Assembly: GCA_002714485.1 (NCBI GenBank)
Contig: PAXM01000019.1
Location: 1 to 35,048, forward strand
Origin: Acidimicrobiaceae bacterium
Lineage (GTDB): Bacteria > Actinomycetota > Acidimicrobiia > Acidimicrobiales > MedAcidi-G1
Reading direction: 5' to 3'
DNA: 35,048 nucleotides
Shown here: positions 19,114 to 35,048 of the stretch, piece by piece
How the letters are laid out: each line of letters begins with the position of its first letter
Numbering within the stretch: position 1 is the first letter of the stretch
Translations under genes and position numbers: made by a program
Notes under the pieces: model-generated
The model's input: only the letters and a program-made list of their open reading frames with translations
What the model was told of the DNA's origin: nothing
Databases searched by the model: none

Positions 19114-19126
19114 TGGATCTCCTAGT

Positions 19127-19948
19127 TCAGACGGTGATGGTGGTGAAGTCGTCGCCGATGATGACCTCTCCGGAGTAGTGCTCGGCAGCGATAGCTATCC
19201 ACTCCGGGTACTGCTCGGGCGTGGGTGCCGGGACCATGTGAGTGAGAGCGAGTCGCTTGGCCCCCACCCGTTCAGCAGTTTGGGCTGCCTCCACAACGCC
19301 GGAGTGGTAGTCCAGGATGTCTTGCGCCATTTCGCCAGGAAGCAGCTCGATAATGTCGCGACGGAGGACGGTCTGCACGTACACGTCGGCACCTGCGGCA
19401 AGTTCGTCGACCCCGTCACACGGAACGGTGTCTCCGACGAGCGCCGCTGTTCTGCCGTCATGCTCGAGGCGGAAGCCGACTGTCGGCCGTACGGGTGCGT
19501 GTTCGGTCGCCGCCGTGGCGATCTGGACCTCACCGAGTGCGAACGAGTCGCCGGGTACCAATTCGGTGACGTCCACCTTGGGTGGATTGGTGAGCACGTC
19601 GTGATGCTCGATCCGGTAACCGATATCTGGTTCGAGTGCATGTAGTTGTCGATCAACAAACTCGGCCATGCCCACCGGACCATAGATCTGAAGTGTCGCG
19701 TTGCCCTGCGACATCACCCAGTGGGTGGTGATGACGTCGTTGAGCGCGCATATGTGATCACTGTGCAGGTGGGTGACGAGTACCCCGGCGAGCAGCCCCG
19801 GAAGCGATCCGGCACCAGCCATTCGCATCACCACCCCCCTACCGGCATCCACGAGGATCTGGGTCTCGCCGGCCTTCACCAGCGTGGACGGGCCAGCTCG
19901 GTTGGCGTCGGGCAGGGGCGAACCGGTCCCGGTAAGGATGACCTCCAT
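19127..19948 (-). CDS. MBL-fold metallo-hydrolase (RNase Z/ElaC-like architecture)
   Basis: THLHSDH Zn motif plus downstream H and D ligands (EHAP, GDT, LTH). The start overlaps the stop of the upstream gene (TAATG). Confidence 0.85.
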   Translation of the reverse strand: MEVILTGTGSPLPDANRAGPSTLVKAGETQILVDAGRGVVMRMAGAGSLPGLLAGVLVTHLHSDHICALNDVITTHWVMSQGNATLQIYGPVGMAEFVDRQLHALEPDIGYRIEHHDVLTNPPKVDVTELVPGDSFALGEVQIATAATEHAPVRPTVGFRLEHDGRTAALVGDTVPCDGVDELAAGADVYVQTVLRRDIIELLPGEMAQDILDYHSGVVEAAQTAERVGAKRLALTHMVPAPTPEQYPEWIAIAAEHYSGEVIIGDDFTTITV

Positions 19949-20775
19949 TACGGCCCCTCTTCTAGATCGACGGAGGCCTCCAGTCGATTAACGATTGGCC
20001 GGGTCACCAAGGTGTAGGTATCGGCGATAGCTGGTTCTCGGTACTGGCGTTGGGCGGCAAGACGATCCGGGTCCATGACAACGGCCATGAAGGCCCGCCG
20101 GCTCGGAAAGGTATTGAAACGAACCTGATCCCAGCGCCGGCCGTCACCGATGATCGTGCCCTCGACAGCGAACCATCCTGTGACGCGAGCCCCATGCGGG
20201 GCCGCGACCTCTCCAGCATGGCTGGAGTAGGACTCCATGTCTGCCGGCGACTGGGGTCCGGCGTCGTTATGGAAGGACAACACGTGGACCACCATCACCT
20301 CGCCGTCATCGGTGGTCGGCGGGTGGGGCACCTCGCTCCAGTCGGGAAGGTCGAACACGCCCCAATTGGCTCCCAACATCGGCTGGGTCCCCATGACAAT
20401 CGTCTTAGCCATTCCCGCATCCTTATGTTCGTGGAGGCGCTGAAAGTCATCACGTTGTTGCATGTCGATGAAGCTGCGGCGCGTCGGGTACTTGACCACC
20501 GCTACTCGGTCCCACTTCGGGTCAGCCCCGAGGAACTGGTCCTGCACGTCACCTACGAAAACGATTTCGGCACCCACGGCGGCCAACGGACCCGTCGGGG
20601 TGTACATATCGTCGGCCTCGCGTCCGCTGATGGCTGAGTCGCGACCATCTGCGTAGTCGGCTGCCGTTCGGTAGCTCATGAGGTTCACCATCCACAACGG
20701 GCCTTCTTCGTCCGGTGGGGTGGATGCCAGACGCCGGCCATACCTGGTGTCGATCTGCCCGTAGCGAGGACTCAT
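19948..20775 (-). CDS. protein with two tandem DUF1330-like (dimeric alpha/beta-barrel) domains
   Basis: There is an internal duplication. WDRVAVVKYPTRRSFIDMQQRDDFQ...H..AGMAKTIVMGTQP is echoed by WDQVRFNTFPSRRAFMAVVMDPDRL...REPAIADTYTLVTRP. Both copies fit the DUF1330 pattern. Confidence 0.55.
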   Translation of the reverse strand: MSPRYGQIDTRYGRRLASTPPDEEGPLWMVNLMSYRTAADYADGRDSAISGREADDMYTPTGPLAAVGAEIVFVGDVQDQFLGADPKWDRVAVVKYPTRRSFIDMQQRDDFQRLHEHKDAGMAKTIVMGTQPMLGANWGVFDLPDWSEVPHPPTTDDGEVMVVHVLSFHNDAGPQSPADMESYSSHAGEVAAPHGARVTGWFAVEGTIIGDGRRWDQVRFNTFPSRRAFMAVVMDPDRLAAQRQYREPAIADTYTLVTRPIVNRLEASVDLEEGP

Positions 20776-20907
20776 AGGAGTTGCCCCACCCTGAAATGGT
20801 CCTTCATCGTTGCCTTGCTCGAGTCTCGTTCGGTTACGAGGTCGCTACTAACGATCCAACGATTTGCCATGGCGTCCCACCGTCCGGCTCCTGTCCTGGA
20901 ACCACGC

Positions 20908-21843
20908 TCACGTGAGGCGGCCTCCCACGAAGTCGTCGACGAGCTGGGCGAGATCGGGGCCACAGTCCTCTTGTACAAAGTGTCCGCCACCTTCGATAGT
21001 GCGGTGGGGTTGCCCTTGGGCGCCGGGAACAAGGGCCCGGAACGGTTTATCGCCACCTCGGGTGACCGGGTCCTGGTCGCTGAAGCAACACAAGAGCGGC
21101 TTCTCCCAGGCCTTCAAGATCTCCCACGCAACGGCGTTCTCGGCACCCTCAGGTCCGTCCGGTGACGTGACCACAAGTGATGGCCAGATGCGGGCCCCTG
21201 CCTTGTACGAGTCGTCAGGGAATGGTGCGTCGTAAGCGGCGATCTCGGTCGGCGAGAGGTCGCTAACGCATGCCCGGTTGATCAGTTCGCCGATCGGGAA
21301 CACCGGCGAGTCCTGCGAGAACTTCTGCCAGGCCATGAAAGCCTCCCCCGGTGGGGGTGTTCCGGTAGGAAGGCCGGTGTTGGACAAGATGATCCGGGAG
21401 AACCGCTCAGGTTCGGCGGTGACCAATCGCAGTCCGATCAGTCCACCCCAGTCCTGTCCGAAGAATGTGATGTCGTTGAGGTCGAGGTGTTCGAACACCA
21501 GGCTCGACATCCAAGCGACGTGACGGGCGTAGGTGTAGTCAGCCATCTCTGTGGGCTTGTCACTGCGGCCGAAGCCGATCTGGTCGGGTACGACCACCCG
21601 GTGCCCGGCAGCAACCAGTGGTGGAATCATGTGCCGGTACAGGTACCCCCATGACGGTTCGCCGTGCAGGAGCAGCACTGGCGCAGCACCAGTCGGCCCC
21701 TCGTCGAGGTAGTGCACCCGCAACTTCTCGTCGTCGGTCTGATCGCCTTCTACGGGCGTAGCCGGGATCTCGACGTAGTGGGACTCGAACGGAAAATCGG
21801 GTAGGTCGACGAAGCGTTCGTCGGGGGTACGAAGTGCTCTCAT
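20908..21843 (-). CDS. haloalkane dehalogenase (HLD-I, DhlA-like)
   Basis: Similar to Xanthobacter DhlA from N-terminus to C-terminus: RTPDERF..LPDFPF, HYLDEGP, LLLHGEPSWGYLYRHMIP, GFGRSDKP, GQDWGG, AYDAPFPD.SYKAG and GGHFVQE. Confidence 0.85.
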   Translation of the reverse strand: MRALRTPDERFVDLPDFPFESHYVEIPATPVEGDQTDDEKLRVHYLDEGPTGAAPVLLLHGEPSWGYLYRHMIPPLVAAGHRVVVPDQIGFGRSDKPTEMADYTYARHVAWMSSLVFEHLDLNDITFFGQDWGGLIGLRLVTAEPERFSRIILSNTGLPTGTPPPGEAFMAWQKFSQDSPVFPIGELINRACVSDLSPTEIAAYDAPFPDDSYKAGARIWPSLVVTSPDGPEGAENAVAWEILKAWEKPLLCCFSDQDPVTRGGDKPFRALVPGAQGQPHRTIEGGGHFVQEDCGPDLAQLVDDFVGGRLT

Positions 21844-21852
21844 TGGGTCTCC

Positions 21853-22992
21853 TCAGGGATGTTCTAGGAGAGGTAGAGGTTCCATGTTCAGCATCCGCCG
21901 ATAGGTCCCGTGGTAGTGGTGTAGGGCGGGTTCGTTACGGCCGAACACCACGTGGTCGATGGCCCCTGACGAGGCGGTGCGTTGCTGGCTCGCACTCACC
22001 ACGTAGTCCTCATCGCGGATGATCGACCCGAAGCCCCTCGAGATCATCGTCAACATTTCGCGGAACTGTGGGTCCGCAGCTGGGCCGGGTCGCAGGTACC
22101 AGGTAATTCGACTCACGTGACGTCCAGGATCAGTGGAGCTCGGGTAGGCCCGAACCAGGTGAATTCCCTCGGCGAAGGGCATGAGTTGGACATTGGGGAA
22201 CAACCAGTAAACGGGGAGGGCTGCGGTGGTGATCTGCCACTCGTCCTCCGGTAGGTCTCGCAGCCCGTCGATGTCACGCTTGCACAGCAGCATCCGGTGG
22301 TTTCGTCCGTAGGTGTCATAGCACTGGACGTTCCCGTAGAAGTTCAGGTGGATCGTTTCCGAATGGAGTGAAGGAAAGTGATAGGTCTCTCCGAAGGTGT
22401 CCATGGCCAACTTCCAGTTGCAAGCCACGTCGTAGTCGTCCCTGCCGAGATACGCCAGCTCGTCGAGGTTCCACGAGGCCAGCTCGGCCTGAAGTTCAGG
22501 TCCCAGTTGCTCCTCGAGATCAATGGTGCCCTCAGGGTCGGGGTGGACCCACAACAGGCCGGCCTCCTCTAGGGCGGGCAATTCAACCAGGCCGAGGCAG
22601 GCCTTGTCCGGGTCACCGAAGTGGTCCGCATTGGGTATACCAACGAGAGCACCTCCGATGTCGTACGACCATCGGTGGAACGGGCAGGTGAAGCGCCTGG
22701 CCCCACCCCGGTCACGCTCCTCGAGCACCACGCCCCGGTGTCGACAGGCGTTAACGAAGGCCCGTAAGCGACCGTCATCGTCGCGGGTGGCTAAAAGTGG
22801 TGTGGGTAGGTCGTCAGACGTCAGGAAGGCCCCGGGCTCAGGCAGGTCACCGGTTAGACCGACGAGGTGAGGATGGCCAGCGAAGAAGGCTTGGCGCTCA
22901 CGCTCGGCCAGGTCAGGGTCTGCGTAGACACTCGTTGGATTGCGACAGAATCCCCCGGCATCGACATTCAGCCCGTCGTCGAGGCGCGACAT
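21853..22992 (-). CDS. Rieske [2Fe-2S] non-heme iron oxygenase, alpha subunit
   Basis: CRHRG...CPFHRW Rieske motif and DTFGETYHFPSLH mononuclear iron motif. I trimmed the start to the ATG at 22992, with 23100 as an alternative. The 511-aa track ORF would overlap the divergent gene. Confidence 0.85.
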   Translation of the reverse strand: MSRLDDGLNVDAGGFCRNPTSVYADPDLAERERQAFFAGHPHLVGLTGDLPEPGAFLTSDDLPTPLLATRDDDGRLRAFVNACRHRGVVLEERDRGGARRFTCPFHRWSYDIGGALVGIPNADHFGDPDKACLGLVELPALEEAGLLWVHPDPEGTIDLEEQLGPELQAELASWNLDELAYLGRDDYDVACNWKLAMDTFGETYHFPSLHSETIHLNFYGNVQCYDTYGRNHRMLLCKRDIDGLRDLPEDEWQITTAALPVYWLFPNVQLMPFAEGIHLVRAYPSSTDPGRHVSRITWYLRPGPAADPQFREMLTMISRGFGSIIRDEDYVVSASQQRTASSGAIDHVVFGRNEPALHHYHGTYRRMLNMEPLPLLEHP

Positions 22993-23132
22993 TAACAACC
23001 TGATCTGGGAAACCTGTTCGCTTCGATCCACGATTCTCCCGGAAGTCTGCTTGACTGGCCCGCTCCGAGTGTTCTCCCAACCTGGCAACGCTGCCAACAT
23101 GGCCGGCTGCCGACACCGGCTAGGAGGTTGCT

Positions 23133-24053
23133 GTGATTCCTCTAGACGAGACCTACGAAGGAACGTTCCCGTTCGCACCTCAGACGTTCGATGGCTGTGG
23201 CTTCGTCCAGCACTACGTAGACGAAGGGCCACGTGGCGCCGAGCCGATCGTGCTCCTGCACGGTGAACCGACTTGGGGCTACCTGTATCGGCACATGATT
23301 GGTCCACTATCGGAACACCACCGCGTGGTCGTCCCCGACCACATGGGCTTCGGCAAATCTGAGACACCACAGGACCGCGAGTACACACTCCAGACCCACA
23401 CCGAGAACCTGGTCGCGCTGGTGGAGCACCTCGACCTGTCAGACATCACGTTCTTCGGTCAAGACTGGGGCGGTCCAATCGCCACGGCTTTTACGGTACG
23501 CCACCCTCAGCGGGTCAAACGAATGGTGTATGCAAACTCGCTGGCCGGATACGGCCGAATCGGCGATGAAGACGCAACCCCGATGGCCCAATCGCGCTGG
23601 TTCACCTGGATCGGTGGTGGCCTGGAATCAGGCCGGACCGCCGACGTCCTGTTGAACCTGGGGTCGACCGTTCTCTCGGTCATGAAGTTGACGGGTTTCA
23701 CCAACTCGGCAGCCGTGGACGACACGTGGATTCGGGCTTACTCGGATCCCTTCCCGGACCGAGCGTCTGCCATCGGCGGGCTTGAGTTCCCCCTCGACGC
23801 ATACCTGGGCCGCATTGCCGAATACGTCATCGCCGGGGCCGAAGGGGTGCCCGATCTGGTGTCCAAGCCGGCGATACTTCTGGAAGGCTTGGAGGACGGG
23901 GCGATTCCCCCCGACCGGGCCATCGCCGATTTCCGGGCGCTGTGGCCCGACGGTCCGGTGGTCGAACTACCCGGGGTAGGCCACTACTGCCAGGAGGACG
24001 CCCCCGAGGCCCTGGTGGCCCACGTCAGGGACTTCCTCCAGGCCAACCCCTAG
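23133..24053 (+). CDS. haloalkane dehalogenase-like alpha/beta hydrolase (paralogue of 20908..21843)
   Basis: HYVDEGP, LLHGEPTWGYLYRHMI, GFGKSETP, GQDWGG, YSDPFPD and VGHYCQED motifs. GTG start 6 nt after AGGAGG. Confidence 0.8.
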   Translation: MIPLDETYEGTFPFAPQTFDGCGFVQHYVDEGPRGAEPIVLLHGEPTWGYLYRHMIGPLSEHHRVVVPDHMGFGKSETPQDREYTLQTHTENLVALVEHLDLSDITFFGQDWGGPIATAFTVRHPQRVKRMVYANSLAGYGRIGDEDATPMAQSRWFTWIGGGLESGRTADVLLNLGSTVLSVMKLTGFTNSAAVDDTWIRAYSDPFPDRASAIGGLEFPLDAYLGRIAEYVIAGAEGVPDLVSKPAILLEGLEDGAIPPDRAIADFRALWPDGPVVELPGVGHYCQEDAPEALVAHVRDFLQANP

Positions 24054-24065: not shown

Positions 24066-25034
24066 TCAGTCAATTCCGCCCAGGTGGCTGTGGGTGTCGG
24101 CTGCCGCCTCGTCGGGCCAGTTGGTGCGCCAGACCTCTGACTGCACATAGCCCATGGGAATCGATCGGGTCTCAAAGCCATCTACTGGCTCGATCATCGG
24201 CTCGGCCACAACCCGGTGGTTGGGCACCGCGAAGAATGGGGCGCTGTACCGCTCGACCCCGTTGGAGATGACCACCCGGTGGGGTGTAGAGACGAGTCGA
24301 CCCCCCGACCAAACCTCCAAGACGTCACCTACGTTCACCAAAAGTGCCCCCTCGGGACAGCTGGCTTCAACCCATCGACCGTTGCGCTTCCGTACCTCGA
24401 GGCCGCCCACTGGATCGGGGTCAAGCACGGTGACCACGGTGATGTCCTTGTGAGGGTGGAACCCCGGCGCCGGGTCGTCGGCTCGCCTGGCCGGGTAGTG
24501 GAGCAGGGTCGTGTTGGTCAGTGGTGCCGCCATGGCTTCGGTTAGAACGGATCGGTCCAACTCCATCTCGTCGGCCAGCACGTCCAGGAGTCGGTCGACA
24601 AGGCCTTCCATGGACGCCCACCAGGACTCCACGATCTGTGGCATTTCCACCGGGCACTCAGGCCACCGGTTCGGTCCGTACAGGTCGCACTCATTCCTGA
24701 CCGGATGTTCCGGCGGGCATTCCCAGTGAAGCTTGTAGCCCTCGAAAGCATCGGCTTTAGCCGCACCTTCCAATGCACCTGAGTCTCGGTTCGGGGTGAA
24801 AAAGTGCAGCGGGATGAAGCCCCGGTAGTTCTCCCGGGTGATGGCCTGCCGGGCCTTGGAGGCCTTGTCCAGCGCGAACAGGTCGACTAGTAGTTGCCTC
24901 ATTGCCGACAGGTCGGCTTCTGGCACCCCGTGCTCACGTAACGCCACAAACCCGACGGTCGAGAGTGCGGCGATCACGCCGGGTCCGTCGACCAAGTCGA
25001 CCACCGGGACGTCAGGGGCCGAAGCTCCCTCCAT
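24066..25034 (-). CDS. Fe(II)/2-oxoglutarate oxygenase, isopenicillin-N-synthase-like family
   Basis: HPHKDITVVTVL (HxD), STPHRV distal His and RYSAPFF (RxS). The ATG at 25034 overlaps the stop of the M24 gene (TAATG). The track's longer ORF is an extension. Confidence 0.85.
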   Translation of the reverse strand: MEGASAPDVPVVDLVDGPGVIAALSTVGFVALREHGVPEADLSAMRQLLVDLFALDKASKARQAITRENYRGFIPLHFFTPNRDSGALEGAAKADAFEGYKLHWECPPEHPVRNECDLYGPNRWPECPVEMPQIVESWWASMEGLVDRLLDVLADEMELDRSVLTEAMAAPLTNTTLLHYPARRADDPAPGFHPHKDITVVTVLDPDPVGGLEVRKRNGRWVEASCPEGALLVNVGDVLEVWSGGRLVSTPHRVVISNGVERYSAPFFAVPNHRVVAEPMIEPVDGFETRSIPMGYVQSEVWRTNWPDEAAADTHSHLGGID

Positions 25035-26215
25035 TAGATGATCGGCAACTCGGGCGGGGCCCGGCGGGACAGCATTTCGGGCCCGTCGGCCCGTAGGACC
25101 AGGTTCTCTTCGTGGACCATCATTCGACCGGGTGCCCACGTGAGACCTGGCTCGAGAGTTAGGACCATCCCCTCCTCCAGGACAGTGGCGTCGTCTGCGG
25201 TATTGGAAGGCCACTCGGTGACCTGCATACCCAGTCCGTGGCCGAGTCGTCCTACCGAGTTCCCGAGCGACCCCCCGGCGTCGAGCACTGCGGCCATGGC
25301 TCGCCACAGATCGCTGGTGGTGGCTCCCGGCTTAGCTGCGGCGAAACCGGCCTCGGTCGCCTCCCACACCGTCCGGTAGGCCCGTTTGGCATCGGCATCG
25401 GCCCGTCCGAAGGCCACATAGCGGTCGAAGTCGCTGGAGTAGCCGTCAAAGACCGATCCGGTGTCGAACATGAGCAGGTCGCCCGGCTCGATCACCCGGT
25501 CCGAGGGCTGCTTGATGATGTCGTCGAAACCCGGGCCGGTGGCCCCCACGAGGTACGGCACGTCATCGGCACCGCGCTCGAGGAGGTCGATGCGGAACGC
25601 CCGAAAGGCCTCTCTCTCGGTCATGCCTACTGACAACAGGTCGCCGATTTCTTCGAAGGCCCCCGAGACCACGTCGCAGATGTGAGCCACTTTTGCGATC
25701 TCACGGTCGGACTTGACCATCCGCAGGCCGCGGACCACATCGGTTGCGTCCACGAAGCTCGCCGGGGCGATCCGTTCCCGTAGGACATCGAGGTCGGTGA
25801 GGGGCATGCGTACGTGGGTTTCGTGGCCCATAGGCAGGCCGATCCTCACCGGTGTCCTGCCACCACCCCCGGTCAGTTCGGTCAGCGTGTCGACCAGGAG
25901 GATGAGACCGTCGTCGGTCGGCCGTGGTGCGGGCCAGGTCCGAATGTCGTTTACCCACGTGGTACCCATGGCTGAGGCGCCGATGCCCGGGATCACGGCC
26001 ACCGGTCGCCCCGCGGCGGGCAGGATCACGAACCATGGACGGGTAGGGCTCTGCCAGAACGGGGTGTGGAACCCCGTCAGGTACCGGACTTCTGGTTCGG
26101 TGCAGACCAGTAGGGCGTCGAGGTCGCGCTCAGCCATCATTGCCTGTGCCCGGGCGGCCCGGGCCACGAACTCCGCATCGGGGAATCCCCGTTCGGGAAG
26201 GGCTTTCTCCGTCAT
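25034..26215 (-). CDS. M24 family metallohydrolase (creatinase / Xaa-Pro peptidase / ectoine-hydrolase-like)
   Basis: Creatinase-type N-terminal domain. Metal ligands lie in FDTGSVFDGYSSDFDR, GHGLG, LEPG and VHEEN. The ATG at 26215 overlaps the upstream stop (ATGA). Confidence 0.85.
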   Translation of the reverse strand: MTEKALPERGFPDAEFVARAARAQAMMAERDLDALLVCTEPEVRYLTGFHTPFWQSPTRPWFVILPAAGRPVAVIPGIGASAMGTTWVNDIRTWPAPRPTDDGLILLVDTLTELTGGGGRTPVRIGLPMGHETHVRMPLTDLDVLRERIAPASFVDATDVVRGLRMVKSDREIAKVAHICDVVSGAFEEIGDLLSVGMTEREAFRAFRIDLLERGADDVPYLVGATGPGFDDIIKQPSDRVIEPGDLLMFDTGSVFDGYSSDFDRYVAFGRADADAKRAYRTVWEATEAGFAAAKPGATTSDLWRAMAAVLDAGGSLGNSVGRLGHGLGMQVTEWPSNTADDATVLEEGMVLTLEPGLTWAPGRMMVHEENLVLRADGPEMLSRRAPPELPII

Positions 26216-27000
26216 CTTTCGAGCCCTAGGGAAAACAGTCTCCCCAGACCCGTTAACTGGTCGTTGATCCCCGCTAGGCGAAGGAGATGCCACCCAAAGG
26301 CCAGGTTGCTGGATACCACCGCTACCCCGAGTTCGGATTCCAAGTCGGCGGCTACTCCGCAGGCCCGAAGGCTGGTGCACGACACGAACACTGCGTCCAA
26401 TGCTTCTGCATCCGGATCGCCGGCGGAGTTACACACCATTTCTCGCACGGCGTCGGCCACCGCAGCTTCGGTTATACGAGCCACGGTGGCGTCGCTCTCC
26501 TCGAGGAAGGAGCCAGCGGCGGCCACGTCAAGCCCGCGGTCCTCTAGCAGACTCACAATGCCAGTTGTCACCTGTGCGTTGTAGGGCGTTATGACGGCAA
26601 TCCGACTCGCCCCCAGTGCCTCCATGGCGGCCAGAACGGCACTGATGGGGTTGGTGTTGGCTACTTCGGGATGGGCCCGATCCAGTGCGGCCGATACCCG
26701 CTCCTCCCCGATCAGGGTGGCCGCCGAGGTACAGCCGTAGCCGATGACATCAAAACCCATGATTTCCGGAAGCAGGCCGGCCGCCTCGGGAATCCGGGTC
26801 TCCATGGCCAGGAGGGACTCGGCGGTCACCCGGTCCCCCATGGGGATCCTGGTGGCGAAAGCGGCCACCCCCTCGGGCCATAGCGTGGCCAACTCCGCCT
26901 CTACGGTCTGATCGTTCTCCAGCACAACCAGGCCGATCCGGGCTCGACTGCCGAAACCGGCATCGGTTTCGAATGGGAGCTCTTTCAGTTCGACGGTCAT
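26212..27000 (-). CDS. Asp/Glu/hydantoin racemase superfamily protein (maleate isomerase / arylmalonate decarboxylase / EutA-like)
   Basis: 262 aa with two pseudo-symmetric Cys motifs, GYGCTSA and VSCTSLRA. The ATG overlaps the upstream stop (ATGA). Confidence 0.8.
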   Translation of the reverse strand: MTVELKELPFETDAGFGSRARIGLVVLENDQTVEAELATLWPEGVAAFATRIPMGDRVTAESLLAMETRIPEAAGLLPEIMGFDVIGYGCTSAATLIGEERVSAALDRAHPEVANTNPISAVLAAMEALGASRIAVITPYNAQVTTGIVSLLEDRGLDVAAAGSFLEESDATVARITEAAVADAVREMVCNSAGDPDAEALDAVFVSCTSLRACGVAADLESELGVAVVSSNLAFGWHLLRLAGINDQLTGLGRLFSLGLER

Positions 27001-27878
27001 TCTGGGGTCACCTGGGCCTGCTGGTCGAAGAACGATGCGGTTGAAGGCATCTCCCCGAGAGACATCTCGTAGGGCGCGGCACGAATCCGGCCTGTTGGTG
27101 CACCGCGCACCACCTCCCCTTCGTTGACGCTGGGTATGTGGTTGGGGTGCAGGATCCGACTGTCTTCGGATCGGTAACTAAATATGGCCAACGTCCGAGG
27201 CGCCTCGGTCAGATTGGGCGCCGAGCCATGGACGAGGCGGGTGTGCATCAGGCACGCCGAACCCGCCGTTCCATAGCAGGCAACCGGCTTACCGAGGTGG
27301 GCAAGGTCCTCGTCAATGACTGTCCCGGTAAATACCCCGTTCTGCCAGTGCTCGAATACTGGTCCTCGGTGGGTGCCAGGGATGACTTCGAGGGGCCCGT
27401 TTTCTGGGGTCACGTCGTCCACGAATAGCAGGACGGCCAACATGTCGTCGTTGCTGTGGGCCTCGTAGGCGAAGTCCTGGTGGAACTTGACCACCGTATT
27501 GCTACCCGGTTGCTTGCAATTGGTCTTTACGTTGTTGACCGCGAGGTTGGGGCCAACCAGCTGGGCCGCCGCGTCCACCAACGGACTGTTTCGCATGATC
27601 CGTAGGTGGACGTCGCACACCTCCTGTGGAGACGCCACGCGCCGTAGCGCCGGCTGTTCCGCGCTGTGGCCGGGTTGCACGTCGAACCGTGCCCGCCCGT
27701 CCATCGTCGTGCCGAACGGGCCAGCATGGTTCCGGCTCTCCTCCACCCAACAGGCGATCGAGGCTTGGAGGTCGACCAAGTCCATGGCTGACACGGCGTC
27801 GTCCATCATCACGTAACCCTCGGACCAAAAGGCTGCGACCTGCTCGTCGGTAAGAGGCAGCCAGGCCGAAGTGCTCAT
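26997..27878 (-). CDS. phytanoyl-CoA dioxygenase (PhyH) family Fe(II)/2OG oxygenase
   Basis: FHQDFAY (HxD), GPLEVIPGTH and LMHTRLVHGSAPN. I trimmed the start to the ATG at 27878, because the track ORF extends through the upstream gene. Confidence 0.85.
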   Translation of the reverse strand: MSTSAWLPLTDEQVAAFWSEGYVMMDDAVSAMDLVDLQASIACWVEESRNHAGPFGTTMDGRARFDVQPGHSAEQPALRRVASPQEVCDVHLRIMRNSPLVDAAAQLVGPNLAVNNVKTNCKQPGSNTVVKFHQDFAYEAHSNDDMLAVLLFVDDVTPENGPLEVIPGTHRGPVFEHWQNGVFTGTVIDEDLAHLGKPVACYGTAGSACLMHTRLVHGSAPNLTEAPRTLAIFSYRSEDSRILHPNHIPSVNEGEVVRGAPTGRIRAAPYEMSLGEMPSTASFFDQQAQVTPE

Positions 27879-27891
27879 AACGGGGATCCTG

Positions 27892-28890
27892 TCATTCAAC
27901 GTCGCGTTCGTAGTGTTCCGTGGGCGGCGGGTCTGTGCGGAGATCCCGAATAGCCTGTTGTACGTCGATGATTGCCTCTTCCAGTCGATCGGCCGCCCAC
28001 TCGTTGTCGATGCCGAAAGGTAGGTCGTCAACGATTTTCTGCAGTCTGCCGACCCCCCGCCAGGCGGCATGCCGGGCCCACTCGGTGGCCAGCACCGCGG
28101 GATCATCCACTCCGACCAGATCGAGTGAGCGGGACTGATCGTCACCATTGCGGTCCAGACACACGTAGCCATTGACCATTGTGATGCGCTCGGCTGTCGA
28201 GTCCAAAGGCCCACCACGATGAACAACCATGTTGCCGTGCAGCGCGATAGCCCATCCGGGGCCTGGAAAGTCGGGAACCAGGACCTGATCGGTCGGAGGA
28301 CGCTTTCCGGCCGCGGCAAGTGCCGCGGCGTCGTCCTTCGTGCCCAGAAAGATCTCGAAGCGACCACCCGGGAGGGCCGTCGGGTCGCTGACCATCATCA
28401 CGTAGTCCAGAGCCAGGGTGTCGTGATGCCATTTGTCGACAGCATCTCCCACGCTGCTGGGTTCATAGTTGAGGTGCCCGAGGTGAACCGGCATGGTGTG
28501 GGGTGCCACGGCCGTGCCGTACACCTCCACCATCATGTCGGTGACCTCTGGTGAGAGGCATAAGTCCCGAAGCCACCGAGACCGGTAGCAGCCGCCACGG
28601 ACCGTGTTCTCGACGCGATCTCGGGCGTTGGTCTGGAACACTCGTAGTCGGCGGGCGGTGTCCACTAGGACCGCTGCCCCTTCATCGGACAAGATGCGGA
28701 GCGGGGTCGAGAAAGCCACCGGTGTGGCCGTCACGGCGATCTCCTCGCGCTGGTAGCCGAGCTCGGTCAACATGGTGACCCCGGTGGGTGGTCGGAGATC
28801 CAAGTGAAGCGTCGGATCGAAGGCTGGCTCGTCGTCTAGCCAGTCGTACCCGTCGGGTCGGATCTCGGGAAATGGCACCGCTACTGACAT
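27892..28890 (-). CDS. divergent Fe(II)/2OG-oxygenase-like protein (family not recognised)
   Basis: WHHDT (HxD), then VVHRGG 66 residues later, then ERIT (RxS/T-like) 11 residues after that His. This spacing fits a double-stranded beta-helix oxygenase. GAGGAG RBS. Confidence 0.5.
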   Translation of the reverse strand: MSVAVPFPEIRPDGYDWLDDEPAFDPTLHLDLRPPTGVTMLTELGYQREEIAVTATPVAFSTPLRILSDEGAAVLVDTARRLRVFQTNARDRVENTVRGGCYRSRWLRDLCLSPEVTDMMVEVYGTAVAPHTMPVHLGHLNYEPSSVGDAVDKWHHDTLALDYVMMVSDPTALPGGRFEIFLGTKDDAAALAAAGKRPPTDQVLVPDFPGPGWAIALHGNMVVHRGGPLDSTAERITMVNGYVCLDRNGDDQSRSLDLVGVDDPAVLATEWARHAAWRGVGRLQKIVDDLPFGIDNEWAADRLEEAIIDVQQAIRDLRTDPPPTEHYERDVE

Positions 28891-28936
28891 CTTTTGGACT
28901 CCTCAATGCTTTCGACGGTCACCGGCCATTCACCTC

Positions 28937-28954
28937 TCCAAGCCGCAACTTGGA
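28937..28954. repeat. inverted repeat TCCAAG-ccgcaa-CTTGGA in an intercistronic gap
   Basis: Read directly. Lies 15 nt downstream (minus strand) of the flavoenzyme stop. Confidence 0.5.
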
Positions 28955-28968
28955 ATCATGGGCCACGC

Positions 28969-31026
28969 TTAGAGGTGCTGCAAGAGCCGCCGGGCGTCAA
29001 GTAGGGCTGAGGCCACGTCACGACTGGCCACACAGTCGCCGACTCGATACAGCAGGTAGCCACCGTCGGTCGCGGTGAACGCCGGTTGGGCCCGACCTCC
29101 GATGAGCGCCTCCAGGTCCACGACACCGTTGTTGACGGAACCCTCTCGTAACGCCACGTAGAGTTCTGCGTCCGGAGCCACGCCGTGCTCGACAATCACG
29201 GAATCCACCATCCGGTTCATCTGCACCCGGGTGTACTCGTTGCGCATCACTGTCTGAAGAGACCCACCGTCAGTGAGCTCGACTGCGACCAGACGGTGAT
29301 CTGGCGTGATTGCCACGCCGCCCTCGTAGAGCATCCGTAGGTACGCAGGCCCCAATGGTGTAGCTAGGTCTAGGCCGACATGCCGATCAGGTGTCACCAC
29401 TTCGATATCCGACACACCGAGGACCTTGGCCTTTTCCACCAAGAACTCAACGACAGCTAGACCCCGTTCGGCACCATGGTCGTCGTAAACCAGCACCCGG
29501 CCCCCGGGTCGGGCCGAGCCACCCAACACGTCCCATGCTGTGTACACCAGGTCTGCACCCGCCTCCAGATAAGAGACCTCAGGCGATCCACCCGTGGCCA
29601 CAATTACAACGTCGGGCACTTCGGCCAAAACGTCACTTGCATCGACCGGTGTGGACAGCCGAACGTCGACGCCGATCAGCGCCACCTCGTTGACCAGCCA
29701 GTCCAAGAGACCGGCCACCTCGCGCTGACGCTCACCCGCCCGTGCCATAAGTACCAGCTGTCCTCCAAGTCGGTCTTGCGCCTCGAACAGAACCACCGTG
29801 TGGCCCCGCTCGGCAGCCGTTCGTGCTGCCTCTAGGCCACCAGGACCACCACCTACTACGACGACCCGGCGAGCCTGGCCATCAGATCGCACCACCACCT
29901 GCGGCACCGTCCCCTCACGGCCGGTAGCGGGATTCTGGATGCACACCGAATCCAATCCGAGATGTAGTCGATTAATGCACAGCGACGCCCCCACGCAGGC
30001 GCGTATTCGCTGCGGCTCACCCCGCTCCAGCTTGGCCACCAGATGGGGGTCAGCGAAGTGCGCTCGAGTCATTCCCACCAGGTCGACGGCACCGGACTCC
30101 ACGGCGTGTCTGGCCGTGGCCGGGTCGATGATCCGGGTGGCGTGCAGGAGCGGCAGGTCGGTTGCCGAGCGCACAGCAGCAGCGACTGGCAAGTACGGCG
30201 CCAAGGGTGTGCCAGCCGGCGGAATGGCCCGCGACAGGCCTTGGTCGGTAGCAAGTGCCGGTCCAGCCACGTTCAGGAAGTCCAACAGACTTGATCCGGC
30301 CAGGTGCACCGCGATGGCGCAGCAGTCCTCCTCGTCAAGGCCCCCAGCCTGATCCTCGGTGCCCAGCATCCGTATGCCCACTAGGAGCCGCCCGTCGACA
30401 GCCTCCCGGACGGCCTCCAGGACCTCGATCGTTAATCGCAGCCGGTTGTCCAGCGAACCGCCGTATCCGTCGGTCCGGCGGTTTACCAGCGGCGACCAGA
30501 ACTGGTCCAGGAGGTGGCTGGTGGCCAGCAACTCGATCCCATCCAGCCCACTGTCAGCGACCCGTCGGGCAGCGGCAGCGAAGTCAGCCACTACCCGAGC
30601 CAGGTCCGATGGTTCAGCCTCTTTGGGCCAGAACCGGTGCATGGGTTCCCGGATGGGCGATGGGGCGATGGTGGGCAGCCAGTCGCCATCATTGGATACG
30701 TTTCGGCGCCCCATGTGCGTCAGTTGGCACATGATCGCGGTGCCGTGTACGTGGACCCGCTCAGCCATCGCTGCCAGTGGGTCGACGACGGCGTCGGTGG
30801 CGAAATTTAACTGGCCCCAGAGTGAGGCCGAGTCGACCGAGACGTTTGACGATCCACCAATCATGGTCAGTCCGATACCGCCCCGGGCCTTCTCCTCGTG
30901 GTATCGGACATACCGGTCGCTGGGGGTTCCATCGACGTTGTACCCCGGTGAATGGCTGCTGGAGAAGATCCGGTTTCGCAGGCGCAGCCCTGCCAAGTCG
31001 AATGGTTGGAGCAGCGGGTCGTTCAC
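28969..31026 (-). CDS. two-domain flavoenzyme: OYE-like FMN TIM barrel fused to FAD/NAD(P)-binding domain
   Basis: 685 aa. The family includes 2,4-dienoyl-CoA reductase, trimethylamine dehydrogenase and N-methylproline demethylase. N-terminal LRLRNRI...SSH OYE start. Central CVGASLCINR...CIQNPATGRE segment. VVVVGGGPGGLEAA and VVIVATGG dinucleotide motifs. GTG start. Confidence 0.9.
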   Translation of the reverse strand: MNDPLLQPFDLAGLRLRNRIFSSSHSPGYNVDGTPSDRYVRYHEEKARGGIGLTMIGGSSNVSVDSASLWGQLNFATDAVVDPLAAMAERVHVHGTAIMCQLTHMGRRNVSNDGDWLPTIAPSPIREPMHRFWPKEAEPSDLARVVADFAAAARRVADSGLDGIELLATSHLLDQFWSPLVNRRTDGYGGSLDNRLRLTIEVLEAVREAVDGRLLVGIRMLGTEDQAGGLDEEDCCAIAVHLAGSSLLDFLNVAGPALATDQGLSRAIPPAGTPLAPYLPVAAAVRSATDLPLLHATRIIDPATARHAVESGAVDLVGMTRAHFADPHLVAKLERGEPQRIRACVGASLCINRLHLGLDSVCIQNPATGREGTVPQVVVRSDGQARRVVVVGGGPGGLEAARTAAERGHTVVLFEAQDRLGGQLVLMARAGERQREVAGLLDWLVNEVALIGVDVRLSTPVDASDVLAEVPDVVIVATGGSPEVSYLEAGADLVYTAWDVLGGSARPGGRVLVYDDHGAERGLAVVEFLVEKAKVLGVSDIEVVTPDRHVGLDLATPLGPAYLRMLYEGGVAITPDHRLVAVELTDGGSLQTVMRNEYTRVQMNRMVDSVIVEHGVAPDAELYVALREGSVNNGVVDLEALIGGRAQPAFTATDGGYLLYRVGDCVASRDVASALLDARRLLQHL

Positions 31027-31052: not shown

Positions 31053-31072
31053 GGTCTAGATCTCGCTAGACC
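31053..31072. repeat. inverted repeat GGTCTAG-atctcg-CTAGACC between cysC and the flavoenzyme gene
   Basis: Read directly. It is AT-richer than its surroundings and lies in one of only two real gaps (79 nt here, 78 nt at 28891..28968) in the 11-gene array. Confidence 0.5.
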
Positions 31073-31105: not shown

Positions 31106-31756
31106 TCAGGAGTAGGTCCCATCAGGGAACAAAAGGTCGAGTACGGCGTCCACGCAATCTTGGAGAGGTCGACCAGTGTCGATCCGCAAGTCAGGCGAGA
31201 TGGGCGTTTCGTATGGTGCCGAGATGCCACTGAAGTCGGGAATCTCTCCCGCCCGAGCCCGGGAGTACAAGCCCTTGACGTCCCGCTCCTCGCAGACCTC
31301 TAGCGGCGTGTCCACGAAGACCTCGATGAAAGTTCCGTCCGGGTGCATGGCCCGCACGGCCTCCCGGTCGGCGCGGTAGGGCGAAATGAATGCGCTGAAC
31401 ACCACCAGACCAGCATCCTGGAACAGCCGGCACACCTCACCGATACGGCGCACGTTCTCAGTTCGGTCATCGGGCGAGAATCCAAGGTCGCGGTTAAGGC
31501 CCATGCGGACGTTGTCTCCATCCAAGACGTATGCAGCCACACCGCGGGCCACCAAGGCGTCCTCCACCGCGAATGCCAGCGTGGACTTCCCGGAGCCGGA
31601 AAGTCCGGTAAGCCAGACCGTCCTGCCATCGTGGCCGGTCAGCGCAGTCCGTCGGGCCCGGTTCACGTGCCCCTCCGCTCGGGTGAGGTCCTGGGACACC
31701 GGTCCGTTATTCCTCGAAGAGTCGAATTCAGCCACGGAGCACACCCCGATCCTCAA
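31106..31756 (-). CDS. cysC: adenylylsulfate (APS) kinase, stand-alone and canonical
   Basis: [23 protein letters not shown] and [11 protein letters not shown]. The ATG at 31756 overlaps the cysNC end by 29 nt. An in-frame GTG at 31699 is an alternative start. Confidence 0.9.
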
Positions 31757-33647
31757 GTAACGTGAAGATGGCGTCTACGCATTCATCGATGTCCTGCACC
31801 GAGGTGTCGAGTCGAAGATCCATGTCGGTGGGCTGTTCATAGGCCGATGACACACCCGGGTAGTCCTCAATTTCTCCCCTATCGGCCGCTTCGTACTGGC
31901 CACTTGAGTCGCGCTGCCGGCAGACCCCAATCGGAGTGTCAACAAACACTTCCACGAAGCGGTGGTCGCCAATGAGTTCGCGGGCACGAGTTCGAACATT
32001 GGCCTCGGGAGCCACCAGTGCGGCAATGGCTATCAGGCCTTGCCGATTGGCTAGCAGCGCCACCTCGGCCACACGACGCAGGTTCTCCGAACGGTCCCGG
32101 GCGCTGAAACCAAGGTCTCGGCTTATGCCGAGACGTACGTTCTCCCCGTCGAGCCGAATGGTGGCGTGGCCGCGATCGAACAAACGGCGCTCCAAGCCCG
32201 CTGCAATGGTTGACTTGCCTGCCGCTGTCAAGCCGGTCAGCAGGACCGTGCAGGGTCGTTGGCCAAACCGTGCCACTCGCTCCTCCGGCGTGATCTCTGA
32301 TCGGTGGCGGACTAGGCCGACAGCAGGGCTCCGATCCCAGACCGAGGAGGCGCACAGAATCATTCCGGCGGCTACCGTCGCATTGTCCATCCGATCCACG
32401 AGGACGAACGAGCCAGTCCGCCGGTTGGTGGAATAGGGGTCAAATAGCAACTCGCGTTCAGCGGTGATCGTGCAACGGGCGATGTCGTTGAGGGCCAGCT
32501 CTGTGGCTGCCACGTGCTCTAGCGAGTTGACGTCCACCCGATAGTCGATGGCGGCCACCGATACGCCAACGAGGCCGTTAGCCGACTGCAGGAGGTATTG
32601 GCGACCGGGCCGCATTTCCTCGTGGGCCATCCAGACCAGCATGGCGTCGACCTCGTGGGACCGAGTCGGCTGGTCGTCGTTTCCCACCAGGAGGTCACCC
32701 CGGCTGACGTCGATCTCATCGGCCAGGGTCAGCGTCACCGCATCGCCGGGCCCGACCTCGTCAAGGTCACCATCGAAGGACACGATGCGGTCAACAGTGG
32801 ATGCCACCCCCGACGGGAGTGACACCACGGGATCCCCGGGCCGCAGCACTCCGGAGACCACCGTGCCAGCGAACCCTCGGAAGTCGCCGTCTGGACGAAT
32901 CACCAACTGCACTGGCAGGCGGAACCGGTCCAGATCGACGCCGGCGGCCACGTCGACAGTCTCGAGGTACTCCATCAAGGGCGGTCCATCGAACCAGGTG
33001 AGGTTGTCCCCACGTTCCACCACGTTGTCGCCCAGTAGGGCCGACATGGGCAGGAAGTACGGGTCGACCAGCTGCAGACCGGTGGCGAAGGCCTGGTAGT
33101 CGGCCCGGATCTCGTCGAACCGATCCTCGGACCAGGCCACCAGGTCCATTTTGTTTACGGCCACTACCACCTTATGGATGCCAAGCAGGCTGGCGATGTG
33201 GCTGTGTCGGCGGGTCTGGTCAAGTACGCCGTGCCGGGCGTCCACGAGGATCACCGCCAGCTCACATGTCGAAGCCCCGGTGGCCATGTTGCGGGTGTAC
33301 TGCTCGTGACCAGGGGTATCAGCCACGATGAACTTGCGACGGGCTGTCGAGAAGTAGCGGTAAGCCACGTCAATGGTGATGCCCTGTTCCCGTTCAGCCT
33401 TTAGGCCGTCCATGAGCAATGACAGATCGAGATGGTCGCCTGCGGACCCCACAACCGTTGAGTCGACCTCTAGACCGGCAAGCTGATCCTCGTAGATCAT
33501 GCGTGAGTCGTGGAGTAGGCGCCCGATGAGGGTCGACTTGCCGTCGTCGACACTGCCGCAGGTCAGGAGCCGTAGTAGGTCCTTACGCTCGTGTTCGGCT
33601 AGGTAGGCCTCAATGTCGGTGGCGATGAGCTCGGAGGCGTGAGACAT
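31728..33647 (-). CDS. cysNC: sulfate adenylyltransferase subunit 1 (GTPase) fused to an APS-kinase-like C-terminal domain
   Basis: [17 protein letters not shown] and NKMD GTPase motifs. The C-terminal ~190 aa are homologous to CysC but with altered motifs (see findings). Confidence 0.9.
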
Positions 33648-34564
33648 CAGAAGTACCCCTCGCGTTTCTTGTCCTCCATGGAGCCAGCCTGATCGTGGTC
33701 GATGACTCGCCCCTCGCGCTCGGACCGGGTGGCCAACAGCATCTCCTGGATGATCTCAGGCAGCGTGGTGGCCGTCGACTCCACTGCACCCGAAAGCGGG
33801 TAGCAGCCGAGGGTGCGAAAACGCACCGACCGCATCTGAGGCTCTTCCCCGTCGGAGAACCGGAAGCGATCGTCATCGACCATGATGAGGGTTCCATCGC
33901 GTTCCACAACAGGCCGTACCTTGGACCGGTATAGGGGCACGATGTCGATGCCTTCCAGGTGGATGTACTGCCAGACGTCCAACTCGGTCCAGTTGCTAAT
34001 CGGAAACACTCGGATGCTCTCACCCCTGTGGATCCGGCCGTTGTAGAGGTTCCAGAGCTCAGGTCGCTGGTTCTTCGGATCCCATCGGTGGTTCCGGTCC
34101 CGAAAACTGAATTCCCGCTCCTTGGCCCGGGACCGTTCCTCGTCGCGCCGAGCACCCCCGAACGCCGCATCGAAACCACCGGCGTCCAACGCCTGGCGCA
34201 GGGCCACAGTCTTCATGATGTCGGTGTAGTTCCTCGACCCGTGGTCGAACGGGTTGATCCCTTCGGCTACACCAGCGGTGTTGGTGTGGACGATCAGGTC
34301 CAGATCCAGTTTTGCGGCTGTCTGGTCACGGAACTCGATCATTTCCTGGAACTTCCAGGTGGTGTCGACGTGGAGCAGCGGGAACGGAATGGGTCCCGGG
34401 TGGAACGCCTTACGGGACAGATGCAGGAGCACTGACGAGTCCTTACCGATCGAGTAGAGCATGACCGGCCTCTCGAACTGGGCAACGACCTCACGCATCA
34501 CGTGGATGGCCTCGGCCTCCAGTTGCTGGAGGTGGGTCCGCTGCTGTGCTGTGTTCGACGCCAC
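33647..34564 (-). CDS. cysD: sulfate adenylyltransferase subunit 2
   Basis: [15 protein letters not shown]-loop. Full-length CysD pattern ending in [11 protein letters not shown] start 3 nt after the TetR stop. The stop overlaps the cysNC ATG. Confidence 0.95.
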
Positions 34565-34567
34565 GGT

Positions 34568-35048
34568 TCAGCCATCACCTAGGGCGATGGCCTCGCAGCG
34601 TTGCAGGCCGCGCTCCAGCGCCTCCCGGTCCCCGAAACGGGCCCAGTTGAGCCAAAGCCCATTCTGGGTGAGTGACACGTCGACAGCTCGTTCTCGTGCT
34701 CCGGTCGCGGAGAGTTCGGGACGGGCCTGCAAAATCATTTCAGTCATCCGGTCCACGTACTCGCAGTAAAACTTCAGATCGGTCTTGCCGATCTCCGGGT
34801 CTAGCCGGCCCGCCGCCCAAATAACTAGCCGGAGCCGACGGTTCTCCGACGACAAGAATTCTTCGGCCATCGTCCCCCGGATAAACGTCCTTACCCGCTC
34901 GTCAGCACCTGTCACCCCATCTATGGAAACCATGGACTCGACCAGAAGGCGATCACAGGCCACCTGTAACGCCGCGCCAATTAGGGCCTGCTTGCCCGAG
35001 AAGTGATAGTTGAGCAGCCCCAGGGACACATCCGCTTCGGTTGCCACG
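34568..35048 (-). CDS. TetR/AcrR family transcriptional regulator (N-terminus beyond window edge)
   Basis: ATEADVSLGLLNYHFSGKQAL is the recognition-helix end of a TetR HTH. It is followed by a helical ligand-binding domain. The ORF is open to the window edge. Confidence 0.75.
   Translation of the reverse strand, partial: VATEADVSLGLLNYHFSGKQALIGAALQVACDRLLVESMVSIDGVTGADERVRTFIRGTMAEEFLSSENRRLRLVIWAAGRLDPEIGKTDLKFYCEYVDRMTEMILQARPELSATGARERAVDVSLTQNGLWLNWARFGDREALERGLQRCEAIALGDG

Follow-up and report, generated by a model that had tools for sequence, protein, structure and literature searches.

What is known, and what is this locus?

Among the ring-opening routes known from bacteria are those built from hydantoin racemase, hydantoinase and N-carbamoyl-amino-acid amidohydrolase, and the Pseudomonas pathway that converts 2-amino-thiazoline-4-carboxylate (ATC) to L-cysteine. 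Actinobacteria, for their part, carry sulfation modules that depend on 3'-phosphoadenosine 5'-phosphosulfate (PAPS), in which cysDNC genes stand with sulfotransferases, for example for sulfolipids. Ectoine is broken down by the Eut/Doe enzymes in Ruegeria pomeroyi, Sinorhizobium meliloti and Halomonas elongata, and a recent survey of ectoine catabolism, in which the pathway is proposed for Actinomycetota as well, does not describe the arrangement that concerns us here (PMC13188858). That arrangement is a block of six genes at positions 24066-31026 of a stretch of 35,048 nucleotides from an Acidimicrobiaceae bacterium (contig PAXM01000019.1 of assembly GCA_002714485.1), a stretch that we call, at its full length, the window. 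We consider it about an even bet (a probability of roughly 0.5) that the block serves the catabolism of a cyclic or N-substituted amino-acid-type solute, for example a cyclic amidine, a ureide or an imino acid, and the substrate is most likely akin to ectoine as a type of molecule, and not ectoine by orthology. The block would then be a widespread, uncharacterised variation on the way in which ectoine-type compounds are broken down, unusual in that its operon is tied to PAPS synthesis. A sequence-only reading of the same DNA had proposed multi-step processing of a cyclic or N-substituted amino-acid-like compound, which is partly supported in that our own best reading is a similar one, although the six genes have turned out not to be indivisible.

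How are the genes organised?

All six genes lie on the minus strand where the sequence-only reading had put them, co-directional and in the order F-E-D-C-B-A, and the families that it had assigned are borne out by Pfam and NCBIfam or, for E, by a structure model. Gene models were refined by start-codon context and domain limits, the longest open reading frames (ORFs) being too long for four of the six genes, and they are as follows.

F, 28969-31026, minus strand, 685 aa: two-domain flavoenzyme (Pfam Oxidored_FMN, 155 bits, and Pyr_redox_2)
E, 27892-28890, minus strand, 332 aa: Fe(II)/2-oxoglutarate (2OG) oxygenase of an unnamed family, remotely HalD/BesD-like, predicted hydroxylase type (HxD)
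D, 26997-27878, minus strand, 293 aa: Fe(II)/2OG oxygenase (Pfam PhyH, 76 bits)
C, 26212-27000, minus strand, 262 aa: EutA-like racemase-fold protein (Pfam Amdase, 80 bits)
B, 25034-26215, minus strand, 393 aa: M24 hydrolase (Pfam Peptidase_M24, 137 bits, and Creatinase_N)
A, 24066-25034, minus strand, 322 aa: Fe(II)/2OG oxygenase of the IPNS/ACCO/EFE class (Pfam DIOX_N and 2OG-FeII_Oxy)

D and C overlap by 4 nt, as do C and B, and B and A overlap by a single nucleotide (TAATG), with gaps of 13 nt between E and D and of 78 nt between F and E. As judged from this layout the six genes form one predicted transcription unit, probably continuous with a TetR-cysD-cysN-cysC set immediately upstream, and its 3' end should lie at A, because A converges on a plus-strand alpha/beta-hydrolase gene (23133-24053). 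A promoter scan found nothing, and a terminator scan gave six terminator-like sites against a shuffled mean of 6.0, which is no excess. A single poly-A metatranscriptome holds related fragments at 90-95% identity, so relatives of several of the genes are transcribed, and these fragments are uninformative on operon structure. An inverted repeat in the gap between cysC and F (GGTCTAG-N6-CTAGACC, 31053-31072) was considered as an operator and rejected, being conserved in no related locus.

How far is the arrangement conserved?

The nearest genomes to that of the window are metagenome-assembled genomes of marine Acidimicrobiales, and twenty marine plankton or seawater metagenome runs contain 56-92% of the sampled words of the stretch. 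Conserved synteny, a check that the sequence-only reading had suggested, holds for the array cysD-cysN-cysC-F-(E)-D-C-B-A among marine Acidimicrobiales, in no fewer than 11 genomes counted at the species level, with E and C homologues at 65-90% identity. The loci with the block, in our numbering of related loci, are L003, L005, L007, L010, L014-L017 and L019-L023 (C identity 65-90%), with E missing from the block in L010, L016 and L022. Since synteny persists across this many species-level genomes, with C identity down to 65%, the six-gene arrangement appears to be more than chance. No orthology of the whole block to a characterised operon emerged from the synteny search, and the searched literature held no description of the gene combination, of Acidimicrobiia sulfation clusters or of the diaminopropionate-ammonia-lyase operon described below, in line with the earlier view that the combination fits no known pathway.

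A smaller core stands out when 80 GTDB loci are surveyed by tblastn and the gene families are counted in an all-against-all comparison. By tblastn D, C and B were all matched in 49 of the 80. Where a C gene was called (65 loci after de-duplication), B was found no more than 6 kb away from it in 46 cases, and D in 40. All told, more than 60 genomes carry the trio. The three genes occur together, in several gene orders, in nearly all of the Acidimicrobiia loci and in some Alphaproteobacteria. For B, identity is 64-92% among the Acidimicrobiia and about 50-60% in the Proteobacteria. In the tblastn survey A is part of the block in the window's clade alone, and the cys genes, too, go with the block only there. 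F accompanies the trio without cys genes in L035, L036, L039 and L090, whereas in L032 and L045 the trio has E but neither F nor cys genes. Read from these gene contents, the D-C-B trio is the evolutionary core, to which other clades would have recruited F and E separately, and the set of six is not an indivisible one.

What kinds of enzyme are B and C?

The fold of C is that of Asp/Glu racemase, maleate isomerase and arylmalonate decarboxylase (AMDase), the last two of which are its matches in the PDB. Its catalytic cysteine pair, C90 (in GCTS) and C208 (in SCTS), is invariant (69/69). AMDase carries a single catalytic cysteine, and with both present we have rejected an arylmalonate decarboxylase assignment for C: the invariant two-cysteine pair makes racemase or isomerase chemistry possible, and decarboxylase chemistry looks unlikely.

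In B the five M24 metal ligands (D, D, H, E, E, in the motifs FDTG, SDF, GHGLG, LEPG and HEE) are found in 64-65 of 65 sequences, as assigned by motif and not from a solved complex, and with the ligands of the dinuclear site in place B is a predicted metal-dependent M24 hydrolase of the ‘pita-bread’ type. Its PDB matches are prolidases, with 119 bits for an alignment to the C-terminal domain, and DoeA (6twk), with 62 bits along the full length. That B-type and C-type enzymes are functionally linked is suggested by a ‘Rosetta stone’ fusion, in which one 633-aa ORF (L064:14023-15924, plus strand) joins Creatinase_N, Peptidase_M24 and Amdase domains, with two more M24 paralogues adjoining it.

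The likeness of C to EutA, of B to EutD/DoeA and of D to EctD, which had been picked up in the sequence-only reading, holds in the sense that these are the best or near-best named matches. The scores are nevertheless far below the equivalog cut-offs. B reaches 67.9 against 613 bits and 57.4 against 575 bits with the EutD/DoeA models (TIGR02993 and NF038259), D reaches 49.7 against 336.5 bits with EctD (TIGR02408), and C reaches 173.2 against 318 bits with EutA (TIGR02990), even though this is its best NCBIfam match. On these scores the block would be a sister system to the ectoine enzymes, neither the ectoine pathway nor a degenerate ectoine cluster. The same applies to the C family at large, ten members of which, from two phyla, score 188-204 bits against the EutA cut-off of 318, which argues for a sister family of EutA, not EutA itself. 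EutB, EutC, DoeB, DoeC, DoeD and a transporter are all absent from the window (by Pfam on all larger ORFs, and by tblastn with DoeB, AT5 and aldehyde dehydrogenase queries), just as the sequence-only reading had it.

What do the three oxygenases and the flavoenzyme look like?

A, D and E all carry the HxD...H facial triad and the basic, 2OG-binding residue of the Fe(II)/2OG superfamily, whose fold is a double-stranded beta-helix (A and D by Pfam and alignments, E by model, Foldseek and alignment), and the earlier count of three separate HxD...H oxygenases was correct, the case of E being settled by the model and the invariant residues. The best PDB match of D is EctD (4mhr, 7.7e-13), followed by GriE and proline hydroxylases, and its HxD...H...R residues are invariant (64/64). 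A best matches a protein of the ethylene/succinate-forming-enzyme type (9ovh, 6e-29), with HxD...H and the Arg of RxS invariant in 15/15 and the Ser in 14/15.

E has no match in Pfam or NCBIfam and none by sequence in the PDB, and its homologues number at least 948, of which a few are flagged PF23169. An AlphaFold model of E, built from 23 homologues, has a pLDDT of 81.6 and a pTM of 0.84, and a Foldseek search with it returned the folds of HalB, BesD, HalD and EctD (E-value about 6e-6, probability 1.0), with proline hydroxylases also among the structural matches. The residues H155-x-D157, H224 and R235 are invariant in the 23 homologues. We considered a 2OG amino-acid halogenase of the BesD/HalB/HalD kind and rejected it, as the HxD motif is intact, with Asp157 invariant, and does not read HxG/A; the model thus identifies E as a hydroxylase-type Fe(II)/2OG enzyme. 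The E family is wider than the operon, since homologues of up to 68% identity stand alone in other Acidimicrobiia genomes (L001:10001-11008 and L002:10001-10990, at 61-68%), and one of these two lone genes has genes for a DAO/GCV_T demethylase and for binding proteins of the peptide type in its vicinity. A tblastn match between the N-terminus of E and an enolase-superfamily protein of L005 (29% identity, very gappy, in a tiny database) was judged spurious.

F combines an FMN barrel of the old yellow enzyme (OYE) type with an FAD/NAD(P) Rossmann domain, the two-domain architecture of the OYE/FAD iron-sulfur flavoenzymes. Its best NCBIfam match is the mycofactocin-type OYE_2 family, at 499.5 bits against a cut-off of 793. 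Full-length PDB alignments run to a 2-naphthoyl-CoA-reductase-like protein (NCR), 2,4-dienoyl-CoA reductase (DCR), trimethylamine dehydrogenase and histamine dehydrogenase. The earlier placing of F in a family of N-methylproline, dimethylglycine and trimethylamine demethylases therefore holds only at the level of the superfamily, whose solved members span ene-reductases and amine dehydrogenases. The canonical four-cysteine 4Fe-4S motif (CxxCxxC...C) is not found in F, which has instead C-x2-A-x2-C-x11-C (29941-29997), with three cysteines and an alanine fixed at the second position. The motif is identical in 16/16 homologues, and this alanine is on that showing a conserved feature and not a lesion.

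Which partners does the trio keep elsewhere?

The commonest neighbour of the trio is a class-V pyridoxal-phosphate (PLP) enzyme, encoded divergently at 14 loci, with EgtE and SufS as its best named matches. Aldehyde dehydrogenase is found at eight loci and Cys/Met-type PLP enzymes at six. In L061 the trio adjoins a DoeB/EutE equivalog, which with 419 bits is above the cut-off of 402.7, and its family recurs beside the trio in L026, L033 and L051. Further neighbours are an amidase, an M20 peptidase, a second PhyH protein, HalD-family oxygenases and an Amidohydro_1 protein whose best match is the Caulobacter-type Xaa-Pro dipeptidase, a homologue of which occurs in Aldehydirespiratoraceae loci at 355 bits against a cut-off of 500.

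In Alphaproteobacteria an 816-aa DAO/GCV_T N-demethylase follows directly after C, behind a GntR regulator, and B is found with M20 and with a diaminopropionate ammonia-lyase that scores 473 bits (cut-off 276). An operon of this kind recurs on RefSeq-annotated plasmids of cultured strains, with an AsnC regulator, an M20 or amidohydrolase gene, diaminopropionate ammonia-lyase, B and C, together with tripartite (TRAP), ATP-binding-cassette (ABC) or betaine/choline/carnitine-type (BCCT) transporters. The plasmid operons (L094-L099) come from Aminobacter sp. SR38, Vibrio cortegadensis CECT 7227, Phaeobacter sp. G2, Sinorhizobium alkalisoli YIC4027, Photobacterium sp. TY1-4 and Aliiroseovarius crassostreae, the Aminobacter variant reading LysR, then an ABC transporter, C, B, M20 and cystathionine beta-lyase. 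This proteobacterial B/C operon is apparently undescribed.

Because uptake systems, AsnC, GntR or LysR regulators, deacylases and an ammonia-lyase adjoin B and C in cultured Proteobacteria, we read the B/C family as catabolic, and the direction of the pathway, which had been left open before, is no longer fully so. By analogy, the logic shared by these contexts would be to epimerise, to hydrolyse a C-N bond, to deacylate and then to dismantle the freed amino acid.

Is sulfate activation part of the system?

The sequence-only reading ended its cluster at 31026, and missed the genes for a regulator and for sulfate activation that lie directly upstream on the same strand, at a place where relatives insert a sulfotransferase.

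cysC, 31106-31756, minus strand: stand-alone adenosine-5'-phosphosulfate (APS) kinase, 79 nt upstream of F (Pfam APS_kinase, 223 bits)
cysN, 31728-33647, minus strand: cysN fused to a second APS-kinase-like domain (Pfam GTP_EFTU and APS_kinase)
cysD, 33647-34564, minus strand: sulfate adenylyltransferase small subunit (Pfam PAPS_reduct, 188 bits), 86-93% identical to relatives
TetR-type regulator, 34568-35047, minus strand: C-terminal part, cut by the window end (TetR_C_6, BetI-type, 25 bits against a cut-off of 27)

In the APS-kinase-like domain fused to cysN the conserved ‘SAFISPY’ is replaced by ‘AALVAPE’, whereas the stand-alone cysC is intact, and this pairing is kept in relatives. So is the position of cysC, which in L010 lies about 5-13 nt from F, and a complete TetR gene heads the array in L005. 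Beyond the window end lies the region equivalent to one that, in L003 and L007-L010, encodes a flavin-monooxygenase-like enzyme, a CN_hydrolase and a major-facilitator (MFS) transporter divergently from the cysD-headed array.

Although there is no sulfotransferase within the window, relatives do supply them. L005 has Sulfotransfer_5 and Amidohydro_3 genes between cysC and F, and also an enolase-superfamily gene between F and E (cis-3-hydroxy-L-proline dehydratase is its best match, with 305 bits where the cut-off is 500), while L017 has a second Amdase-fold gene and Sulfotransfer_5 between cysC and F. Directly before E-D-C, L032 has an Amdase-fold gene and Sulfotransfer_5, and L045 has Sulfotransfer_5 alone directly before E-D-C-B. 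In six Aldehydirespiratoraceae genomes a gene of the other family, Sulfotransfer_3, adjoins the unit formed by AT5 and the trio. A Sulfotransfer_5 gene in Planktomarina (L077) was left uncounted, being 8 kb from C and beside sugar-uptake genes. Sulfatases are frequent neighbours as well, and the window has two.

That two sulfotransferase families should have been recruited in different arrangements by coincidence is unlikely, and where a sulfotransferase belongs to a relative's operon, one new hydroxyl is probably sulfated in that genome. For the window itself we rate a functional link to PAPS only tentatively, at somewhat worse than even odds, because it has no sulfotransferase and because gaps are short throughout this compact genome.

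What else lies in the window?

Downstream of the block (16298-23031, minus strand, and 23133-24053, plus strand) lies a set that has a Rieske oxygenase between two haloalkane-dehalogenase-like hydrolases, then a tandem-DUF1330 protein. It also includes an RNase-Z-like metallo-beta-lactamase-fold (MBL) hydrolase, a 763-aa sulfatase and a 175-aa orphan, and the same run is 82-94% identical in L022. Elsewhere in the window (4423-5859, plus strand; 10546-11901 and 12050-16199, both minus strand) are a second sulfatase (478 aa), an M20 peptidase and a run of FA_hydroxylase, FGGY kinase, Pyridox_ox_2 and PhzF genes. This last run also follows the block in L007-L010, L014 and L019.

How might the block work, and what are the alternatives?

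What we have observed are gene models and folds, catalytic residues, conserved synteny and the genes that act as partners, and from these we infer a substrate class, an order of steps, a direction and a role for PAPS. In the catabolic scheme that we favour, C would epimerise the alpha-carbon or an equivalent centre, and B would open a ring or cut an amide or amidine C-N bond, as DoeA/EutD does on ectoine. D and E might add hydroxyls at C-H positions, either in the substrate itself or in the product once it has been opened. A, in the manner of the ethylene-forming enzyme, could hydroxylate beside a nitrogen, whereupon the C-N bond would fall apart. F, finally, would either oxidise a C-N bond in an N-dealkylation (compare trimethylamine dehydrogenase and StcD) or reduce a C=C or C=N bond (compare OYE and dienoyl-CoA reductase).

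A more adventurous version, which we regard as doubtful, is that these abundant marine Acidimicrobiales hydroxylate a cyclic amino-acid-type solute, sulfate it and then cleave or eliminate. Here E or D would add a hydroxyl, which a PAPS-dependent sulfotransferase such as those in the L005, L017, L032 and L045 operons would turn into a sulfate ester. The ester might be a new sulfated marine solute in its own right, or it might serve as a leaving group, so that the ring could be opened or desaturated by the racemase-fold enzyme, the M24 hydrolase and the flavoenzyme. We found no precedent in the literature for PAPS-dependent activation as an integral step in a catabolic operon.

Several points weigh against catabolism of such a solute. 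The block in the window comes without a deacylase, a PLP enzyme, an aldehyde dehydrogenase or a transporter, so the pathway is incomplete as read. Its partners elsewhere vary by clade, with enzymes of the diaminobutyrate (DABA), diaminopropionate (DAP) and Cys types, and for that reason a substrate cannot simply be transferred from relatives. Short intergenic gaps are the norm throughout this compact window, which makes adjacency weaker evidence than it would be in a larger genome. PAPS synthesis and sulfotransferases are rarely seen in catabolic operons, since sulfation costs ATP, and three oxygenases with a sulfotransferase would equally suit a tailoring, that is biosynthetic, pathway.

This last idea deserves to be taken further, although we think it rather unlikely. 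The array might make a hydroxylated and sulfated amino-acid-derived metabolite (a solute, a signal or a natural product). Its 2OG oxygenases would put hydroxyls in place, one of which would be esterified by means of PAPS and a sulfotransferase, and the sulfate would be kept as the last decoration or else leave in a cyclisation or an elimination. A stand-alone cysC beside cysDN does suggest that PAPS is made for sulfotransferases, and in the relatives the two sulfotransferase families sit between cysC and F, directly before E-D-C(-B) or beside the unit of AT5 and trio. In L010 cysC and F are just a few nucleotides apart. Aziridine and terminal-alkene biosynthesis, besides, make use of a sulfation that is followed by displacement. 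The window, however, has no sulfotransferase, and the block comes without a ligase, a nonribosomal peptide synthetase, a methyltransferase or an exporter. Sulfatases are frequent neighbours, and the B/C family keeps company elsewhere with uptake systems, catabolic regulators, deacylases and ammonia-lyases. Improbable, in our view, is a non-orthologous catabolism of ectoine or 5-hydroxyectoine itself, with D as ring hydroxylase, C in the place of EutA, B in that of EutD, and N-acetyl-diaminobutyrate handled elsewhere in the genome. The named matches of D and C, the full-length alignment of B to DoeA and the DoeB/EutE equivalog flanking the trio in L061 (with its family in L026, L033 and L051) all lean that way, and the pathway has only recently been proposed for Actinomycetota (PMC13188858). 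Against it stand the scores of B, C and D far below the equivalog cut-offs, the separateness of the C family from EutA and the lack of DoeB, DoeC, DoeD, EutB and EutC in the window. Moreover, the PLP partners at most trio loci are of the cysteine type and not diaminobutyrate enzymes, and the proteobacterial members, paired with diaminopropionate ammonia-lyase, point to a different carbon skeleton.

Quite improbable, too, is the degradation of N-methylated or hydroxylated proline derivatives (proline betaine, hydroxyproline betaine or N-methylproline) or of Xaa-Pro or Xaa-Hyp dipeptides, in which B would be a prolidase, F an enzyme of the N-methylproline-demethylase type, D and E proline-hydroxylase-like and C an epimerase. 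Prolidases are the strongest PDB matches of B, but the His-Asp/Glu pair of the prolidase signature reads Thr-Glu in 64 of 65 members of the B family. Proline hydroxylases are among the matches of both D and E, a gene like that of cis-3-hydroxy-L-proline dehydratase lies between F and E in L005, and the Aldehydirespiratoraceae loci have their Xaa-Pro dipeptidase homologue. Yet none of the hydroxyproline-pathway genes is present, and DoeB, diaminopropionate ammonia-lyase and C-S lyases would be unfit partners for proline chemistry. The Rieske oxygenase 1 kb downstream, which might have been claimed for this route, belongs to a separate, divergently started unit. It is very improbable, lastly, that there is no single pathway at all, and that a sulfate-activation operon and unrelated detoxification or scavenging enzymes are simply juxtaposed in a compact genome, in an order inherited vertically within one family. 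Gene order is kept for more than 20 kb around the block in the clade (alpha/beta-hydrolase, PhzF, Pyridox_ox_2, FGGY, FA_hydroxylase and sulfatase), which suggests general synteny; E has its lone homologues in other genomes, and A and the cys genes are joined to the block in this clade only. Such a juxtaposition would leave unexplained the translational coupling that joins D, C, B and A, the independent recruitment of F, E and sulfotransferases to the trio in other clades and gene orders, and the very existence of an M24-Amdase fusion.

Why does it matter?

The D-C-B trio is found in dozens of Acidimicrobiia species, B and C occur in cultured strains of the Roseobacter group, Vibrio, Photobacterium and rhizobia, and the organism of the window, like its near relatives, turns up in many metagenomes of marine plankton. 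Identifying the substrate would give a function to widespread annotations such as ‘Xaa-Pro peptidase family’ and ‘Asp/Glu racemase’, and would add a route by which solutes rich in nitrogen, and possibly with sulfur in them, are turned over in the sea. Whether planktonic actinobacteria use PAPS-dependent sulfation in processing small molecules would be put to the test as well, and should the sulfation route be true, PAPS-dependent activation would be integral to small-molecule turnover. The cultured carriers of the core genes B and C make the question directly testable.

How does it compare with known systems?

Like the sulfation modules of actinobacteria, the window has cysD, a cysN-cysC fusion and an APS kinase to supply PAPS, and its relatives encode Sulfotransfer_5 or Sulfotransfer_3 alongside. 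Unlike them, it has no sulfotransferase of its own, and the coupling is to small-molecule oxygenase and hydrolase genes, not to lipid or glycan synthesis. The catabolism of proline betaine and hydroxyproline betaine (Stc2/StcD and HpbA-D), in which the nitrogen of a cyclic imino acid is demethylated, shares with the block a two-domain OYE/FAD flavoenzyme, an epimerase and oxygenases, and the L005 operon includes an enolase-superfamily enzyme of the proline-derivative kind. The M24 hydrolase, the EutA-like protein and the three 2OG oxygenases are, by contrast, foreign to the known betaine pathway, and the Rieske oxygenase nearby is a separate unit.

With the hydantoin and thiazoline routes the resemblance is one of logic. 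A racemase-fold enzyme, a ring-opening C-N hydrolase and an M20-type deacylase or decarbamoylase would lead in turn to a free amino acid, and the relatives of the block do have M20 genes and, beyond them, diaminopropionate ammonia-lyase or C-S lyases. The difference is that the ring-opener would be an M24 enzyme and not an amidohydrolase of the dihydropyrimidinase type, and that the window's block has no M20 gene inside it. The Eut/Doe system has the same pair of a EutA-like protein beside a creatinase-type M24 hydrolase, in the same folds, and EctD is the nearest named relative of the block's PhyH oxygenase, D. In some relatives, in addition, the adjacent genes encode a DoeB-type deacetylase, a regulator of the AsnC type and uptake systems (TRAP, ABC or BCCT). 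What sets the block apart from Eut/Doe is that it adds two further 2OG oxygenases and an OYE/FAD flavoenzyme, and that it is operonic with PAPS synthesis, its relatives having sulfotransferases as well.

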